Origin: an uncultured virus (IMG/VR IMGVR_UViG_3300050343_000139)
Lineage: Duplodnaviria; Heunggongvirae; Uroviricota; Caudoviricetes
DNA length: 28,712 nt
Strand: one strand, 5' to 3'
IMG/VR virus record: IMGVR_UViG_3300050343_000139
The position numbers were made by a program, and so were the translations under genes. How positions within the stretch are numbered: the stretch's first letter is position 1; each line of letters begins with the position of its first letter. This document shows positions 5,850 through 25,461 of this stretch, piece after piece. The notes beneath the pieces were generated by a model that saw only the letters and a program-made list of their open reading frames with translations, was not told the origin of the DNA and searched no databases.

Positions 5850-8492
5850 TCAACTAGAAGCCAAATTATGTGTCTTTTCCTTGGTAATATCTTTTATAAC
5901 TCTAAGCATAGATATTGGCATCACAACACTTCTATCTGTTCTTTTATGTGAACCATCTTCCATTATTGCCCATACCATCATAGTTGCAGTTTGTTTTTCA
6001 TTATTAACAGAAGTTACAATACCATGAACTGTAGAAGGTGGGTCTGGGTCCTTTTTTATTGACCAAGAAACAGATTGACCTACTTTAACACTAGAAGCTT
6101 TCATCCCACTCTTTTTAGATGAGAGAGGGTGAGAAGAAGGCAACAAGTCTGTATCGTAAGGCTTTCTCTTAAATCGTCCTGTACGCAAAGCGTGTAAGAA
6201 CCCATTAACTCTCGCTACTCCCCACTGTTCAGGACCAGTAACATTACCTCTCACTGAACCAGGGTTTGTTCGATAAGCACCGACACCTCTATTAAAAACC
6301 CTTATAAGAGTACTTAACCTTACGGTGTACTTTGGATTTTTAGCATTGTGTTCCTTAAGTTTATTAGTGAGTGTTTTTTTAATAGTCCCACTAACTTTAG
6401 AAAGGTAGAATTCATCAATCATTTGTTTTTGATATTCTAAAGATTTCTTTCGTCGTTCTCTGACTAATTTCTTTCTTTCATTAATTTCTGCTTTCATTTT
6501 AGGAACACCTATATTTAGAACACCACCCCATTTGATTGCTGCAATAACACCATTTAATCTATTATCATTTTGATGTCTGCCCATGTAACGTTCTCTTCTT
6601 TTTACCCAGTTAAGTACTGATTCACTTCTGTCTCCAGATTGATATTTAGACCATCTACTGTAAGCATCATTACCTGTAAAAGATGTTGGCGGATTACCAC
6701 CGTTACCTGCTAGTCTCCAAATTTCTGGCCAGTTTTCTTTTAAATCTTTTGCATATGAATATGAAAATTGTTTGTATTTAGAATTTGAAATCCTTATCGC
6801 CATATCATCTCCAGAGCTAGGGAAATTAGTTCTATCTTTTTTAGGTTTTTCTTTCTTTTCTGAAGGATTAAACATTTCAGATTCTTTTTCATATAAAACT
6901 TCAGCTTCTTCAAGTGATACTTTTAATTCATCTACAGGTTCAAAATCTTTTTTCATAGAAGCTAAAAACTTTTCTGCCTCTTCTCTAGTTTTAAAACATT
7001 CTACAACTTTGTTATCTTCGTGTTCTAATACACAGTAAGCACCACTAGGCATTTGAGCAATATATTTTTCTTCCCCCCTAGGTTCTTCTGTTCTTTGTAC
7101 TCGTGGCTCCCTAGAAGATTCAGGAGGTACAGCAGTTGAATCTAATATTGCTTTCGATTTAGGGTCTTCTCCGTCATACATGACTCTATCTCTTTCTAAT
7201 AAAGGTTGACCCTCTTCGTTTATTTGAATCATATTAAGAGGTCTTAAGTAAATATCATGCCTATCATCTGTTTCAAGACCCACAACTCTTCTTGCTTCTC
7301 CTATTGTTATCCATCCACCTTGAACACCTGTATTAACTCTTTTATAAAGTTCGTCCATGTCTTCCTGCAAAGCTCTAACTTCTTTTACATCGTATTCACA
7401 TATGTATTCTTTTTCACCAAAGTCTGGTAAGAGTAATTGATGTGTTAGTTCATTTGCAACAGTTTTCCATAAAGGAATAAGTTTTTGTTCAGTAAAGAAT
7501 TCTCTTAATTCACTTGTATTATTATACGTGGCCGAATCCAGTCCAGCTCCGAGTCCAGCGAGAATTGCTGGGACACCTAAAACTGCTGATATTCTCTCTT
7601 CTGGGAGTCTTCTTAGTTCTTGTAGTTTCATTTGGTCTGGAGAGAAAGATACAACATCTACATTCATAGAACCCGATAAGACCATTGGCTGTCCTCTATT
7701 TGCACCACCAAATTTTTGTTTATAAGACTCAGAAATAGCTTCAGCTTCTTCTCTTGTTGGTCCACCCATGGCATCGTTTCTAGGGGAAAGTACAACTCCT
7801 GGTACAGCCATATTGTGTAATAAAGCAGCTGACCATTGTCCAGCAGCTTCGTCTCCAAGAATTTCTCTTAAAACACCTTTAAGTGGAGCATGTCCTCTTC
7901 TATGGTCATTAGGGTCAATACCTTGTCTTATGTGAACAACATCATCATATGGTAAATCTAATGCATTACCACTTCCATGAACAAAATACTCATAGTGCGT
8001 TATTAATTCTTTATCGTTGCCTCTTACTTGAACTAAACTTGGCATTAGTGGTACTAATTGAACTACTTCTCCTTTTGTATTTCTATTCTTGTAGAGAAAA
8101 GCATCTCCTACTGTGTTTAAAGCTAAAACAATATAATGACTAATAAGTCCAGATGACATATAGGGATTAGGCCTTCTCCATAAATCAAATAAAGGGTGTT
8201 TGAAGTCTACATCTCTGTTACCAGCTTCGTCCATTTTAACAATTTGTAACATTGGCTCTGAGAAAGCTGTTGATAATACATTTAGACAAGCAATAACAGC
8301 TGAGTTTGCAGAACCATCACCAATTTCTTCTAATTGTTTTGTTTCCCAAAATCCAGAAGTAGTATTGTAACCATATACTGATGAATCCAAACCGTAGTTC
8401 TGATTATATCTACCCTGTGCTTTTTCTCCACCAGAGTTAGGTCTAATTATATCTACAATTCTTTGAAATCTACTTTTATTTTCTTGTTCCAT
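5850..8492 (-). CDS. Portal protein (HK97-like) with a ~455-aa multi-domain C-terminal extension
   Basis: HPLFDL..RPNPYM, GDAFLY, QLVPLMP, DVVHIR, ISAVLGVPAIL, ATYNN, WITIGEAR; the portal core ends near aa 425. Confidence 0.95.
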   Translation of the reverse strand: MEQENKSRFQRIVDIIRPNSGGEKAQGRYNQNYGLDSSVYGYNTTSGFWETKQLEEIGDGSANSAVIACLNVLSTAFSEPMLQIVKMDEAGNRDVDFKHPLFDLWRRPNPYMSSGLISHYIVLALNTVGDAFLYKNRNTKGEVVQLVPLMPSLVQVRGNDKELITHYEYFVHGSGNALDLPYDDVVHIRQGIDPNDHRRGHAPLKGVLREILGDEAAGQWSAALLHNMAVPGVVLSPRNDAMGGPTREEAEAISESYKQKFGGANRGQPMVLSGSMNVDVVSFSPDQMKLQELRRLPEERISAVLGVPAILAGLGAGLDSATYNNTSELREFFTEQKLIPLWKTVANELTHQLLLPDFGEKEYICEYDVKEVRALQEDMDELYKRVNTGVQGGWITIGEARRVVGLETDDRHDIYLRPLNMIQINEEGQPLLERDRVMYDGEDPKSKAILDSTAVPPESSREPRVQRTEEPRGEEKYIAQMPSGAYCVLEHEDNKVVECFKTREEAEKFLASMKKDFEPVDELKVSLEEAEVLYEKESEMFNPSEKKEKPKKDRTNFPSSGDDMAIRISNSKYKQFSYSYAKDLKENWPEIWRLAGNGGNPPTSFTGNDAYSRWSKYQSGDRSESVLNWVKRRERYMGRHQNDNRLNGVIAAIKWGGVLNIGVPKMKAEINERKKLVRERRKKSLEYQKQMIDEFYLSKVSGTIKKTLTNKLKEHNAKNPKYTVRLSTLIRVFNRGVGAYRTNPGSVRGNVTGPEQWGVARVNGFLHALRTGRFKRKPYDTDLLPSSHPLSSKKSGMKASSVKVGQSVSWSIKKDPDPPSTVHGIVTSVNNEKQTATMMVWAIMEDGSHKRTDRSVVMPISMLRVIKDITKEKTHNLASS

Positions 8493-9712
8493 TAAAAAGC
8501 CTGCCAGGTTCTTTTGTTTTGCAGATGTTGTGCTCCTAAAGCTAATGCATCTACCATATCATCATGAGCACCAAGCGGGAACGTCAAAAGTTCCCTCTCT
8601 AAATCAGGTACCCATGCTGCATCAGCTCGAAACAACACATCTCCTGCCTCCATCCTAGCCGATAATGGCAAAGCCTTTGTTATTTTATCCTTATCAGCAG
8701 AAACTTCTATAACTCTCAATCCACTCCTTTGAGCCATTTGCGTAAAGGGTTTTGATAAACCTTGTTTTTCTAATAAAACATGTTTCCAATTATATCTTCT
8801 GTACATGTCTCTAATTGCTGGAACAACATCAGGTCCTTCAACTTTTATTCTTTGAACGTCATTAACAAATATTCTCATATCTGGTGTCTGAGCGAAGCTC
8901 ACAATTGCTGTGTAGTCAGAAGCATCTGCTGTTGTAACTGCAATATCTGCAGCACCAAAAAAACTTAACTGTTCTGGATTCCATTGAGTTCCACCACCTA
9001 TCCATAAATTGTTTGATTTAATTGAGTAGTATGCAAACCACTCTGGTTTAAACATGGCTTGTCCAGATTCAACAAACTCTGCCATATACTCTTGAGCAAA
9101 AACAATAGAACCTACTTCTGCTTTAGCACTCTCTAATTCCTCTGGGTCAATACTAGGGTTATCTAAAGTTGAAAATTTAAATCTTTCCCAGTTTGGTAAT
9201 TCGTTTGCTGTTTCCCACAAATCGTAAAACCAATTACCAACGCCCATAGGAGTACTAATAAATAACGCTCCACCTTTTCTTTCAGTCAGTGTTGGTCTTA
9301 ATACTTCTCTCCATACTTCTGGCTTTATAAATGCAGCTTCGTCCATAACTAAAAAGTCAAGACCTTCACCTCTTAGACGTTGTGGATTATCAGCAGATTT
9401 AGCACCTATATATCCACCGTTCGGAAAATGAACTTCCATATTAGCAAGTGATATTTTAGGTCTTATTTCTTCGGGAAATGAATAGGCTGCATTTTCTATT
9501 GCTCTCCAGCCAACTCTAGCAATTGCAAAAGTAGGTGCAACCCACCAAGCTCTTTTTCCAGCTAAGGCATTTTCTAAACACAGTTGTACGCCTAATCTAG
9601 TTTTACCAAATCTTCTTCCTGCACAAAGAATTTTCCAACGACTATCAGATTGTGCAACTTTTTTCTGCGCTTCATGCAAAGGAGGTAGTTGTGCTACATA
9701 TTCGTTTGACAC
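8492..9712 (-). CDS. terL: Terminase large subunit
   Basis: Walker A AGRRFGKT, Walker B LVMDEAA, ISTP coupling motif, RNase H-like AADIA...DYTA and HDDMVDA. Confidence 0.97.
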   Translation of the reverse strand: MSNEYVAQLPPLHEAQKKVAQSDSRWKILCAGRRFGKTRLGVQLCLENALAGKRAWWVAPTFAIARVGWRAIENAAYSFPEEIRPKISLANMEVHFPNGGYIGAKSADNPQRLRGEGLDFLVMDEAAFIKPEVWREVLRPTLTERKGGALFISTPMGVGNWFYDLWETANELPNWERFKFSTLDNPSIDPEELESAKAEVGSIVFAQEYMAEFVESGQAMFKPEWFAYYSIKSNNLWIGGGTQWNPEQLSFFGAADIAVTTADASDYTAIVSFAQTPDMRIFVNDVQRIKVEGPDVVPAIRDMYRRYNWKHVLLEKQGLSKPFTQMAQRSGLRVIEVSADKDKITKALPLSARMEAGDVLFRADAAWVPDLERELLTFPLGAHDDMVDALALGAQHLQNKRTWQAF

Positions 9713-10766: not shown

Positions 10767-10810
10767 CATTATAACTTTATTATGAAGCTAACTTATTCTG
10801 TTTTAGACTT
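10767..10810 (-). repeat. Copy 1 of a ~42-bp imperfect direct repeat (promoter-bearing) flanking AIPR
   Basis: cattataactttattatgaagctaacttattctgttttagactt versus copy 2 at 12017-12060. Confidence 0.85.
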
Positions 10811-11943
10811 TTTAATTCTAAACGAGTTGCTTCAAACATCTCTTCCCACATTGGTTGGAAATAACCTACTGGTCTCAATTGGTCATATTGTCTAGCTATT
10901 CTTACAGCTTTCTGCATTAATTTAAATCCAATATTATCCCAAACTTTTTTAGCAAGGTGATAATTAAATTTTCCTTCCATTGCAATTATTGTTCTAAACG
11001 AAGCTATAACTGGAACGAGTACTGCCTGATGTAATACATATTCCATTTCTTTATCTTCATCAATAAACAATGTTTGATTCTTATTGTTTTTCCATGCAGA
11101 AAATATAAACGGATTGTCATCATTAGTTTCCCCTGTAGCATCGCACCACATTGGATAAGCAGTTTCTTGTACGTAGTCTTTAAATCTATAAATATCTTTT
11201 AAACTAGATTTAAATTTCTTGTAGTTGTCATATTGTTCTTCATACTTATCTACAATTTTATTCTTACCACCATAGGCAAGCATCTTTGTATTAGGTTCAA
11301 TCATAAGTTCTGTTCCATCTTTTATCAATGAATAAACTGTTGATATGATATCTCTAACTTTTACAGTTCCATCATCTCCTTGAAAATAAACTATTGCATC
11401 TTCGTATGGAGTATTTTTAAAAGCGTCTTTAATCCACTGAAATTGTCCTTTATGATTTAATAATGATTCATCACTAACTTGCAAAGAATTATTTAAACCA
11501 ATAGAAATATTTAATCTAGTTGACTCATCTTTGACACCAGTCATTATGAAAACTCTTACAAACCTATCTTTTGGTATTGTATTCAATTCATCTCTTATAG
11601 CACCGTAGAGATGTCCTCCGTTAACAATGCCGTCTTCATCTGACAATGTAATGGTTATGGAATCATCCTCGACAACTGCGCTATCAGCTAGTATATGAAT
11701 ACCTAAAGAGGCAAACATAAATAAGTCTGGTATTTGTTTTTTTTCTGTAATAGCATTTACTAGTTCTTGATATGAACTTTTATCAGCTACTTTCTTTCTA
11801 GGGTTTGGTGTATCTGGTAATTCTTCAGCCTCTGCCAAATCTTTACAGCTAATATACCCATAGTATTCTTTAACATTCTTATCAGTTAAGGAAGTTAATG
11901 TACGAATTGCCTGAATAGGCAACGTGATTTTAGTATTACTCAT
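10780..11943 (-). CDS. AIPR-family (abortive infection phage resistance; ParB-like fold) protein
   Basis: PNPRK, LFMFASLGIHIL, DGIVNGGHL, ISIGLNNSLQV motifs. ATG 11943 with a purine-rich RBS preferred over the track start at 12000. Confidence 0.85.
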   Translation of the reverse strand: MSNTKITLPIQAIRTLTSLTDKNVKEYYGYISCKDLAEAEELPDTPNPRKKVADKSSYQELVNAITEKKQIPDLFMFASLGIHILADSAVVEDDSITITLSDEDGIVNGGHLYGAIRDELNTIPKDRFVRVFIMTGVKDESTRLNISIGLNNSLQVSDESLLNHKGQFQWIKDAFKNTPYEDAIVYFQGDDGTVKVRDIISTVYSLIKDGTELMIEPNTKMLAYGGKNKIVDKYEEQYDNYKKFKSSLKDIYRFKDYVQETAYPMWCDATGETNDDNPFIFSAWKNNKNQTLFIDEDKEMEYVLHQAVLVPVIASFRTIIAMEGKFNYHLAKKVWDNIGFKLMQKAVRIARQYDQLRPVGYFQPMWEEMFEATRLELKSLKQNKLAS

Positions 11944-12016
11944 TTTATTCTCTTTCTTTATTGAGATATCTTTCTGATAATCTCTCTTAACACACAACAT
12001 TTGTTGGTGTAATCTA

Positions 12017-13179: not shown

Positions 13180-13635
13180 TTAGTCGCCGTACTCAACGCT
13201 AAACTTGATTGGCTCTCCACCCTCCCCGCCTATCTCTATGGCTGACCTCTTACCCCATTTCTTAGGAAAACTTCGCTCTAACCACCACGCACTGGCTTGC
13301 CAGCTGCCATTATCTGCAGCTCGCCTGATATTACGTATGTGAGCACCCTCGGCTTCAGCTCGCGCTCGCTTTACTGCCTCCGAAAACTCCGAGTACATGT
13401 TAACAACCTCAATCTTTACAGCCTCCTGTGTTGCTGGTAAGGAAGAGTCTGGAGACGGTAGGGCTTTATCTTCCTCTATAATGTCGTCCATTTCGTCACC
13501 CTTCTTCATCCATTCATAGAAGGTAGAGGGGGAAATACCAGCCATAACAGCTGCATCTTCCTGATAATAGCCTAATTTAAGCCAATTACACACATCCTCT
13601 ATAAGATTGGGGGATATTTTACTTTTTCTACCCAT
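13180..13635 (-). CDS. terS: Terminase small subunit (HTH)
   Basis: MGRKSK start, HTH AAVMAGISPSTFYEWM, FSEAVKRARAEAE, WQASAWWLER...WG, GGEPIKF tail. Confidence 0.8.
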   Translation of the reverse strand: MGRKSKISPNLIEDVCNWLKLGYYQEDAAVMAGISPSTFYEWMKKGDEMDDIIEEDKALPSPDSSLPATQEAVKIEVVNMYSEFSEAVKRARAEAEGAHIRNIRRAADNGSWQASAWWLERSFPKKWGKRSAIEIGGEGGEPIKFSVEYGD

Positions 13636-24618: not shown

Positions 24619-24803
24619 ACTTCTTCTACCTCTCCGTTTCTTACATAGTCGTAAGGACTGTAGTTATTTAAAGACCAAAAAAGTTTATTAAAAATTTTTG
24701 TAGTCACTTTATAAATTATTACTTTTGCAATACTGTCTCGTGAGTCATACTTTTCTAATATCGTTAGACAAAGCTCACTAGCTTTACGTTTTATTTTATT
24801 CAT
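24615..24803 (-). CDS. Hypothetical protein
   Basis: ATGA/TAATG coupling. Confidence 0.7.
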   Translation of the reverse strand: MNKIKRKASELCLTILEKYDSRDSIAKVIIYKVTTKIFNKLFWSLNNYSPYDYVRNGEVEEV

Positions 24804-24994
24804 TAATCTGTTTCCTCTCTAGTTGTCCACATATCAAAACTGTATTCAACTTCTTTACCTACTTGAACAAGTAAAGACATTACATACGCCTCAGCATCAG
24901 ATAATTCAGTATCATCTGCAAAACGAAACGTCACTGCTAAGTCGTTTGTTAATTGTTTTCTATCGGGATTTTTATATTTGTATATTTCTTGCAT
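24803..24994 (-). CDS. Hypothetical protein (MQEIYKYKNPDRK...)
   Basis: AGGAAGG RBS before ATG 24994; the track's TTG start lies inside promoter 3. Confidence 0.75.
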   Translation of the reverse strand: MQEIYKYKNPDRKQLTNDLAVTFRFADDTELSDAEAYVMSLLVQVGKEVEYSFDMWTTREETD

Positions 24995-25014
24995 TAAATT
25001 CCTTCCTACAATAC

Positions 25015-25043
25015 TTAGACTATGCAATCTATAAAAAGGTTAC
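25015..25043 (-). promoter_or_regulatory. ECF-sigma-type promoter 3 (GTAAC-N18-GTCTAA)
   Basis: Minus strand TGTAACCTTTTTATAGATTGCATAGTCTAAGTATTG. Confidence 0.75.
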
Positions 25044-25075
25044 ATAATTTAAATAATATTTCTATCACTTACCAG

Positions 25076-25155
25076 TGGACTCGGAGGGACTCGAACCCTC
25101 GTTACCTAACACAATGTACACCATACAAGTTTAAGTCTATTCCAATAACGAGCCC
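25076..25155 (-). ncRNA. Minimal tmRNA-like RNA (tRNA-like domain only, Ala identity, no tag ORF)
   Basis: Acceptor GGGCUCG/CGAGUCC with G3-U70 and discriminator A; T-arm GAGGG-UUCGAGU-CCCUC; 13-nt stemless D-loop UUAUUGGAAUAGA; short closed helix 2. Confidence 0.75.
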
Positions 25156-25162
25156 TAGTTAC

Positions 25163-25264
25163 TTATAATCTTTTTTTGATTTCATTACGAAACCATTTCA
25201 TTCTAGCTTCATATCCATAAGTAATGTCGACTAAATACCATAAAAATTTTCTTATTCTTTTCAT
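25163..25264 (-). CDS. Basic 33-aa protein (MKRIRKFLWYLVDITYGYEARMKWFRNEIKKRL)
   Basis: TAATG coupling; stops 7 nt before the tmRNA-like RNA. Confidence 0.55.
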   Translation of the reverse strand: MKRIRKFLWYLVDITYGYEARMKWFRNEIKKRL

Positions 25265-25461
25265 TATAAATCCAGAGTAGGGTCTTTCCATCCTCTGTTT
25301 CTTCCATAACTTATAGGAGTATGTGTATAGCAATACTCTTTTCTGTTATAGATGCTAAGAGTTTTATTACATGATTCATCTTTGCATAATCTACCTTTTG
25401 CGTATACCTTACTTTTTCTTGAGTTATATGATTTAGTACCAGTTTGATATAAATTACTCAC
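25264..25461 (-). CDS. Small CCCH-type Zn-finger protein
   Basis: GRLCKDESCNKTLSIYN...YCYTH; GTG start with GGAAGG RBS. Confidence 0.75.
   Translation of the reverse strand: MSNLYQTGTKSYNSRKSKVYAKGRLCKDESCNKTLSIYNRKEYCYTHTPISYGRNRGWKDPTLDL

Follow-up and report, generated by a model that had tools for sequence, protein, structure and literature searches.

Can a phage carry, as a gene of its own, a transfer-messenger RNA (tmRNA) that has lost its message, and what could such an RNA do in the infected cell? This question is raised by positions 25076..25155, minus strand, of a 28,712-nt stretch of DNA from an uncultured virus of the Caudoviricetes (IMG/VR record IMGVR_UViG_3300050343_000139; the whole stretch is called the window below), which an earlier note had read as a mini-tmRNA, that is, an alanine-identity tRNA-like domain (TLD) with the entire message and pseudoknot region missing. 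Trans-translation is the main ribosome-rescue pathway of bacteria; little is understood of its role when phages infect. For this pathway, a phage gene keeping exactly the part of tmRNA that is bound by SmpB and by alanyl-tRNA synthetase (AlaRS) would be a natural probe. Our results supported the reading of the element as the TLD of a tmRNA without message and pseudoknots; it is a real gene under strong purifying selection. The TLD-only form to which it belongs is common in phages, and this marine copy falls in a divergent subgroup of it that has GGUAAC as linker.

Anatomy of the element and model searches

The minus strand from 25155 to 25076 carried exactly the 80 nt given in the earlier note, from G1 to the discriminator A, and this whole (25076..25155) was recognised by sequence, by fold, by the tmRNA model and by a covariance model of its phage family. 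In the sequence and in the fold, GGGCUCG (25149..25155, with G3 at 25153) paired with CGAGUCC to give an acceptor stem of 7 bp, whose third pair is G3-U70, the AlaRS identity pair; the 3' strand and the discriminator A73 (25076) occupy 25076..25083, with U70 at 25079. Next to the 5' strand comes a stemless D-loop, UUAUUGGAAUAG, with a GG dinucleotide (25137..25148), which aligned to the tmRNA consensus and was unpaired in the fold, and the AC at 25135-25136, directly after it, completes the GAC signature. Where the message and the pseudoknots would be, there stands a 33-nt central arm (25104..25136), folded as a P2-like helix, ACUUAAAC/GU-UUAGGU, with the cap hairpin UGUAU-GGU-GUACA. The linker AAC (25101..25103), which together with the preceding GGU forms the GGUAAC junction typical of the window's subgroup, leads to the T-arm GAGGG-UUCGAGU-CCCUC (25084..25100), seen in the sequence, in the alignment to the tmRNA model and in the fold. 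All these parts lie on the minus strand.

The minimum free energy structure (-24.0 kcal/mol) left positions 8-19 unpaired and put positions 20-52 into a single interrupted hairpin with a 3-nt loop, so that the element had neither a D-stem nor an anticodon arm; it also had no encoded CCA, because the discriminator is followed by CUG. Sequence and fold thus confirmed the whole anatomy proposed in the earlier note, including the 7-bp acceptor stem, G3-U70, A73 and the perfect T-arm. The GC content of the element was 46%, that of the surrounding sequence 31.5% and that of the window about 35% overall.

ARAGORN called zero tRNA and zero tmRNA genes across the whole 28.7-kb window, in which the TLD was the only tRNA-type gene seen. 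At gathering thresholds Rfam reported no match for the element; at E-value thresholds the best match was tmRNA, RF00023, with 32.9 bits (E 1.2e-11, search of 501 nt). This model was matched end to end (model positions 1-374), 326 of its positions being replaced by 34 nt, which were mostly paired. Both outcomes, no tRNA call and a tmRNA-model match to the two ends only, had been predicted by the earlier note. Weaker matches of the same clan were suppressed in the Rfam search, and this clan competition left no tRNA score visible for the window itself. For the close homologue at locus L149 the tRNA model RF00005 gave 25.1 bits, under its gathering score of 29, and the tmRNA model 35.9; the tmRNA and tRNA scores were 33.2 and 29.5 for L125 and 37.6 and 20.9 for L126, the tmRNA model being ahead in 3/3 relatives tested. 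Measured against a standard tmRNA, the element had the 7-bp acceptor stem, G3-U70, A73, a 5-bp T-arm with a UUCGAnU loop and the stemless GG/GAC D-loop, and it lacked the mRNA-like domain (resume codon, tag frame and stop), the pseudoknots PK1-PK4 and a score at the gathering level. Measured against a canonical tRNA, it lacked the D-stem and an ARAGORN call, and had the 3-nt loop instead of a 7-nt anticodon loop.

Phage relatives and selection on the element

The window clade consisted of five distinct sequences: the window type (identical 80 nt in L212 and L213), the L149 type (77 nt, identical in L234 and L284), its one-base variant L250, and L209 and L239 (78 nt). G3-U70, A73 and the stemless D-loop were retained in the homologues, in agreement with the conservation check that the earlier note had proposed. 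Between the window and L149, acceptor pairs 5 and 6 changed from U-A and C-G to G-C and U-A (GGGCGUG/CACGUCC in L149), and pair 5 became U-G in L209 and L239. The element was nearly invariant inside flanks that had diverged: we found 0/80 differences between the window and L213 with flanks 10.4% diverged (P 1.5e-4), 0/77 between L149 and L234 with flanks 16.0% diverged (P 1.5e-6), and 1/77 between L149 and L250 with flanks 21.6% diverged (P 1.7e-7). Nothing was alignable outside the element between the window, L149 and L209 types. The open reading frames (ORFs) ending at UAG differed in phase and peptide between the window and L209 types, and no frame was conserved among the five variants. In the L149-type phages, a gene for a GGACT protein (gamma-glutamyl cyclotransferase-like, PF06094), absent from the window, was observed about 125 nt downstream of the mini-tmRNA (L149 1025-1375 and L250 514-864, both on the minus strand).

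According to the earlier note, which could not check the point, such an RNA had perhaps not been described in phages. It has been: a TLD-only tmRNA of Mycobacterium phage DS6A has been in print since 2014 (PMC4131195) and again in 2025 (PMC11915505). In the literature that we searched and read, DS6A was the only phage case named, and no wider phage family was described. In print the form figures as an oddity of one mycobacteriophage; here it was met in at least dozens of distinct copies on viral contigs, and also in a marine phage and in cultured Streptomyces phages.

Viral contigs were scanned with a degenerate pattern fixing GGG, GAC, the T-loop core and UCCA with a middle of 20-50 nt, which gave at least 118 loci; conservation of GGG, GAC, T-loop and UCCA in our family scans is therefore by construction, except where a pattern left them free. 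Among the matches listed there were 183 pattern matches, and 68 of these, each from a different locus, combined a perfect acceptor stem of 7 bp with a T-stem of 5 bp; the remaining ones, evenly spread over 63-92 nt, were dropped. The lengths of the 68 peaked at 78-80 nt (45/68), a C followed the discriminator in 66/68 and CCA was encoded in 17/68, and ARAGORN called two of them tRNA-Ala, none tmRNA and made no call for 66. Removal of the two tRNA-Ala and three duplicates left 63 distinct sequences, to which the window and DS6A were added for the alignment. Because MAFFT misaligned the 5' end and the central arm of mixed subgroups, a clean subset of 14 sequences and constrained folds of each sequence were used. 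For the subset RNAalifold gave 20 pairs and showed compensatory changes at 15 of these; in the named structure 97.7% of the cells paired, compared with 67.8% in shuffles and 40-51% when the partners were slid. Pairing in the acceptor and T stems had already served as a filter before this count; the connecting helix, the equivalent of the P2-like helix in the window's central arm, had passed through no such filter and showed compensatory changes at 6/7 pairs and 93.9% pairing.

These 14 sequences, all of them copies on viral contigs, served to build a covariance model, R1, from which the window and DS6A were left out. It gave DS6A 61 bits, an ordinary tRNA-Met 28.4 bits and the window 38.1 bits (E 2.4e-6 in 84 kb), which together with the match of RF00023 at both ends supported the claim of a tmRNA TLD deprived of message and pseudoknots. 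Among the first 100 loci, 54 hits scored at least 44 bits (the 14 training sequences included), two GGUAAC-type copies scored 40.2 and 37.6, and tRNA-Ala scored 32.5-32.9. The overall ranges were about 28-47 bits for GGUAAC-type mini-tmRNAs, at least 44 for the main family and 28.8-32.9 for true tRNA-Ala.

A blastn search with one mini-tmRNA found full-length matches in three Streptomyces phage records and partial ones in others. The three copies, in LuckySocke (OR725497 17977-18054; L313 2501-2578), Shaeky (MT701595; L314 1491-1569) and BRock (KX925554; L315 1491-1568), lie unannotated in gaps of tRNA arrays, scored about 73 bits with R1 and kept G3-U70 and A73 in 3/3. Thioredoxin and RNA ligase genes were seen near the copy in LuckySocke and BRock, and the corresponding place in GiJojo is annotated as a hypothetical protein. 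Such RNAs are overlooked by phage annotation and tmRNA censuses because ARAGORN misses them and their Rfam scores are below threshold; the ARAGORN-based phage tmRNA census (PMC9004378) and the tmRNA database pipeline would both miss them. The main family (L007-L124, e.g. L057 301-379 and L101 301-379; DS6A, L005 28478-28557) has an apical motif close to GUAAAGCC-GCAYG-CGGAA, a hairpin (stem 3 bp, loop 4 nt) with A-rich strands on either side, which is kept across otherwise different sequences and is absent from the window clade.

The GGUAAC subgroup was searched with a pattern fixing only the 3' half (GGUAAC, T-arm and UCCA), which found 39 viral loci. A perfectly complementary 5' strand was present 55-110 nt upstream in 28/39, giving lengths of 69-107 nt, and all 28 started with GGG, the 5' side being absent from the pattern. 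The other 11 included tRNAs and longer forms, where R1 found elements of 111-146 nt (L127, L132, L141, L142, L143, L150 and L155); in the forms of 92-107 nt that were folded, the extra length lies in the central arm. Metagenome contigs were scanned with AGAC, GGUAAC and the T-loop fixed and neither acceptor strand in the pattern, yielding at least 120 loci. Among the matches listed, 53 loci passed the stem filters and represented 22 distinct sequences, 10 of which were mini-tmRNAs, all of them (10/10) with GGG...UCCA. Ten of the other 12, of 74-75 nt, were read by eye only as ordinary tRNAs (probably tRNA-Glu), and two, of 84 and 86 nt, were left unassigned. Constrained folds of 24 subgroup members and DS6A followed nearly all one plan of acceptor stem, D-loop, central arm and T-arm, the central arm reaching from the AC of GAC to GG(U) and the D-loop being mostly unpaired, with 2-5 weak extra pairs in a few. 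As for bacterial tmRNAs with a GGUAAC junction, 0/6 candidate loci reached the Rfam gathering score, and at looser E-values three candidate loci gave sub-threshold matches only (35.3 bits for L172, which looks like a permuted tmRNA, and 30.9 for L171). One 75-nt member heads an array of seven tRNAs, after which lies an ORF with a Tad2-like (anti-Thoeris) domain, PF11195 (loci L131, L135, L160 and L162; L131 2677-2886).

Genomic setting, proposed role and alternatives

The window belongs to a tailed phage, with genes for small and large terminase, portal, protease, HK97-type capsid protein, adaptor, single-stranded DNA-binding protein (SSB), ParB-like nuclease and a DUF932 protein; no record in the phage collection had a capsid protein more than 33.5% identical to that of the window. 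The large (8492-9712) and small (13180-13635) terminase genes are separated by about 3.4 kb, and a 406-aa ORF between them (10780-12000) had no PHROG match. The element sits on the minus strand among small ORFs without assigned function, between the SSB and ParB-like genes. As the earlier note had said, it begins 7 nt after the stop of an ORF (25163..25333, minus strand, 56 aa); the next ORF downstream on the same strand is 24803..25027 (74 aa), and neither had a PHROG or Pfam match. The L149 homologue lies 5 nt after a different, unrelated ORF. Promoter-like matches were not above shuffles (3, with 4.7 expected) and no terminator was found. An integrase was not found among the 37 window ORFs scanned (27 with PHROGs and 10 with Pfam, some small ORFs being outside the scan), and no SmpB, peptidyl-tRNA hydrolase (Pth), ArfB, RtcB or integrase, and no recurrent neighbour, was found with Pfam among 130 ORFs around 29 mini-tmRNAs and the window.

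The whole 2.5-kb stretch around the element was present in each of 14 DNA runs on viral or seawater metagenomes, which come from at least 10 studies; it is therefore no accident of assembly. Blastn found no match for the 1-kb region among 50,697 phage records, and for 91 nt with the element the only matches, to tRNAs and tmRNAs, were of T-arm size; the nearest record, G001, stops about 1.8 kb short of the element. Exact-word scans of viral contigs with the 3' 25-mer found only ordinary tRNA-Met, and with the 5' 21-mer and a two-anchor pattern nothing. A scan of genome contigs gave 21 loci, comprising tRNAs, possible tmRNA 3' ends and five mini-tmRNAs on short contigs of metagenome-assembled genomes; no close homologue of the window element was among these 21, and they did not identify a host. 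The five contigs (L165, L173, L174, L176 and L177) had been binned into genomes of unrelated phyla, one of them archaeal, and are most likely mis-binned phage contigs.

For four marine RNA-library runs, Logan contigs were examined. Two of the runs, both from a single study, had a 3251-nt contig of a relative (about 96%) that spans the element; a separate short contig (86 nt and 218 nt in the respective runs) with an L149-type element, corresponding to window positions 25075-25140, had 4-5x the depth of the 3251-nt contig. This extra depth could come from a stable small RNA or from a repeat collapsed from several phages. The other two runs did not cover the element.

With the anatomy, the family and the selection as described, we read the gene as that of a tag-less mini-tmRNA, which may act as a competitor or decoy against host tmRNA for SmpB and lower tagging, the effect that the papers citing Mao et al. 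2009 describe for a molecule of the DS6A type; this is the best-supported role, and we give it even chances. The RNA would be transcribed with the operon of the early region and released as tRNAs are: RNase P would cut at the 5' end, and the 3' end would be trimmed and completed with CCA; in favour of such processing, other members of the family lie in tRNA arrays or head them. It would be charged with alanine through G3-U70 and A73, and host SmpB would bind the elbow of stemless D-loop and T-loop, for which the retained part of tmRNA could suffice, to judge by analogy with the crystal that PMC3985003 describes. A mini-tmRNA, having no message, cannot finish trans-translation, and its main effect would therefore be competition for SmpB, probably also for AlaRS and EF-Tu, a competition expected to lower ssrA tagging and the linked SmpB-dependent decay during infection.

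Several results weigh against this decoy role or against the class assignment from which it starts. The 32.9 bits obtained with RF00023 are below its gathering score of 47, the 38.1 bits obtained with R1 are only about 5-9 bits above true tRNA-Ala, L125 narrowly passes the tRNA threshold (29.5, the threshold being 29), and the fold energy by itself had a z of only -2.1 relative to shuffles. Given the GGUAAC junction, the different apical hairpin and the 38 bits, the grip of SmpB on the window subgroup may differ. The RNA libraries give no evidence for a mature 80-nt RNA, since the ends of an RNA are not visible in Logan contigs and some DNA may have been carried over. Among the 130 ORFs searched with Pfam no neighbouring gene ties the RNA to trans-translation, RNA repair or defence, and the neighbourhood thus gave no support to the suggestion, made in the earlier note, that RNase-based defences are countered. 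Finally, titration of SmpB alone needs no chargeability (PMC4131195), yet the conserved alanine identity suggests a role for which charge is needed. Since this conservation was not forced by the search, charging can be argued to matter, and it fits either a more effective competitor, engaging EF-Tu and ribosomes as well, or a genuine tag-free rescue.

Such a rescue, in which the alanylated RNA with SmpB and EF-Tu would enter ribosomes that have stalled on broken mRNAs of the phage or the host and there accept the nascent chain, the peptidyl-RNA then being resolved by drop-off with Pth, by ArfB or by a second rescue and the proteins staying untagged, seems to us somewhat unlikely. The unforced G3-U70 and A73 in 28/28 loci, in 10/10 distinct mini-tmRNAs among the matches listed and in 3/3 Streptomyces phage copies speak for it, as does the C after the discriminator in 66/68, which fits completion of CCA; the tmRNAs of jakobids that lack a coding sequence (CDS) co-occur with SmpB and are thought to aid with incomplete mRNAs (PMC11915505). 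However, an RNA without a message leaves the ribosome again with an empty A site, no Pth or ArfB release gene was found among the 130 neighbouring ORFs, and the sole experimental result cited for such a molecule, in PMC4131195 and PMC11915505, is one of inhibition. The cultured carriers offer a direct route to tell a block of tagging from tag-free rescue.

We regard as improbable another tRNA-like role without SmpB, either as a processing signal for RNase P or RNase Z or a stabilising signal, placed where the upstream cistron ends, or as a decoy for tRNA-targeting nucleases or tRNA-binding enzymes. The short distance from an upstream ORF, 7 nt in the window and 5 nt in L149, would suit a processing signal, which nevertheless requires neither G3-U70, A73 and the GG/GAC signature of the D-loop nor a 100% conserved central arm. 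Relatives near the tRNA threshold of 29 (L149 with 25.1 and L125 with 29.5), the small R1 margin over true tRNA-Ala and the one family member beside a Tad2-like anti-defence gene also favour a tRNA-like role of this kind, but the tmRNA model beat the tRNA model in 3/3 relatives and an anticodon nuclease would find no anticodon loop to cut. A non-functional remnant, left by imprecise excision of an attP/ssrA fragment, by decay of a full tmRNA or by an assembly deletion, is hardly credible and already largely refuted: phages frequently integrate into ssrA and carry its fragments (PMC9004378, PMC11590407) and the Rfam score is under the gathering threshold, but the element has its 5' half as well as its 3' half, the two pair perfectly and relatives show compensatory changes, the element is under strong purifying selection, the scan of 37 window ORFs found no integrase, the lengths of the family peak at 78-80 nt (45/68 among the matches listed), and the stretch, complete in the 14 DNA runs, was also carried by an independent contig of a 10%-diverged strain.

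A broader proposal, which we consider unlikely, is that TLD-only tmRNAs of phages are a large overlooked class of alanylation-dependent effectors that do more than titrate SmpB and act on stalled ribosomes themselves, which would turn the trans-translation of the host from 'rescue and destroy' into 'rescue and keep'. If it were true, phage proteins made from cleaved mRNAs could be protected, for example under RNase-type defences, and the marine GGUAAC subgroup, with its altered junction, could be adapted to the SmpB of a different host or to some other partner.

Comparison with known systems

The standard tmRNA of RF00023 shares with the window RNA the features of the TLD, namely G3-U70, A73, the GG...GAC D-loop and the UUCGAnU T-arm, and differs from it in the approximately 326 positions of message, tag frame and pseudoknots, for which the window has 34 nt. 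Full-length and two-piece phage tmRNAs (Bxz1 group mycobacteriophages and OM43 phage Melnitz; PMC4131195 and PMC9004378) are likewise phage-borne ssrA homologues, often near tRNA genes; they encode a tag and are detected by ARAGORN, whereas the window RNA has no tag and ARAGORN is silent on it.

The CDS-less tmRNAs of Mallomonadaceae plastids (about 65 bp) and of jakobid mitochondria mentioned in PMC11915505 are, like the window RNA, natural, cut down to the TLD and presumed to be partners of SmpB. In contrast to these organellar forms, which are reductive relics replacing the resident tmRNA, the window RNA is an extra viral gene beside the full tmRNA of the host. The 63-nt TLD fragment that was co-crystallised with SmpB (PDB 2CZJ; PMC3985003) also keeps ~25 nt of the 5' end and ~34 nt of the 3' end, with a short loop between them; it is artificial, made from T. 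thermophilus tmRNA, and the central arm of the window RNA is longer (33 nt).

The nearest counterpart is the element of phage DS6A, listed by Hudson, Lau and Williams in 2014 as "Mycobacterium phage DS6A (TLD only)" (PMC4131195) and repeated in the tmRNA database paper of 2025 (PMC11915505; tmRNA Website tmID 11587 / Phage__Mycobacterium.9). Both papers credit Mao et al. 2009 with the finding that in E. coli the endogenous tmRNA is inhibited by the DS6A form; a TLD-like molecule is also said to be a strong inhibitor of tmRNA, chargeable or not, perhaps via SmpB titration (PMC4131195). We located the element at JN698994 28478-28557, where it scored 43.2 bits with the Rfam tmRNA model, sub-threshold like the window. 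Both RNAs have 80 nt to the discriminator, a 7-bp acceptor stem, G3-U70, A73, a 5-bp T-arm, no encoded CCA, a stemless D-loop, 15 nt from GGG to GAC, 38 nt from GAC to GUUCGA and a short capped helix replacing the message, and both lie a few nucleotides after the stop of an ORF (about 10 nt in DS6A) in an early or replication region of a phage. They differ in that DS6A is an actinophage of 70% GC and the window a marine phage of 35% GC, the two phages being unrelated and probably their host phyla too; the linker before the T-arm is GGCAC in DS6A, GGAC in the consensus of the main family and GGUAAC in the window, and the apical motif of the CCGCAYGCGG type, present in DS6A and the main family, is missing from the window hairpin. 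In all, the window RNA is phage-borne, falls within ~63-100 nt, has its TLD closed by a short capped helix and is matched by R1 with a modest margin, as in the DS6A type. The form itself was already in print for DS6A, and what the window adds to it is one more member, divergent and marine.

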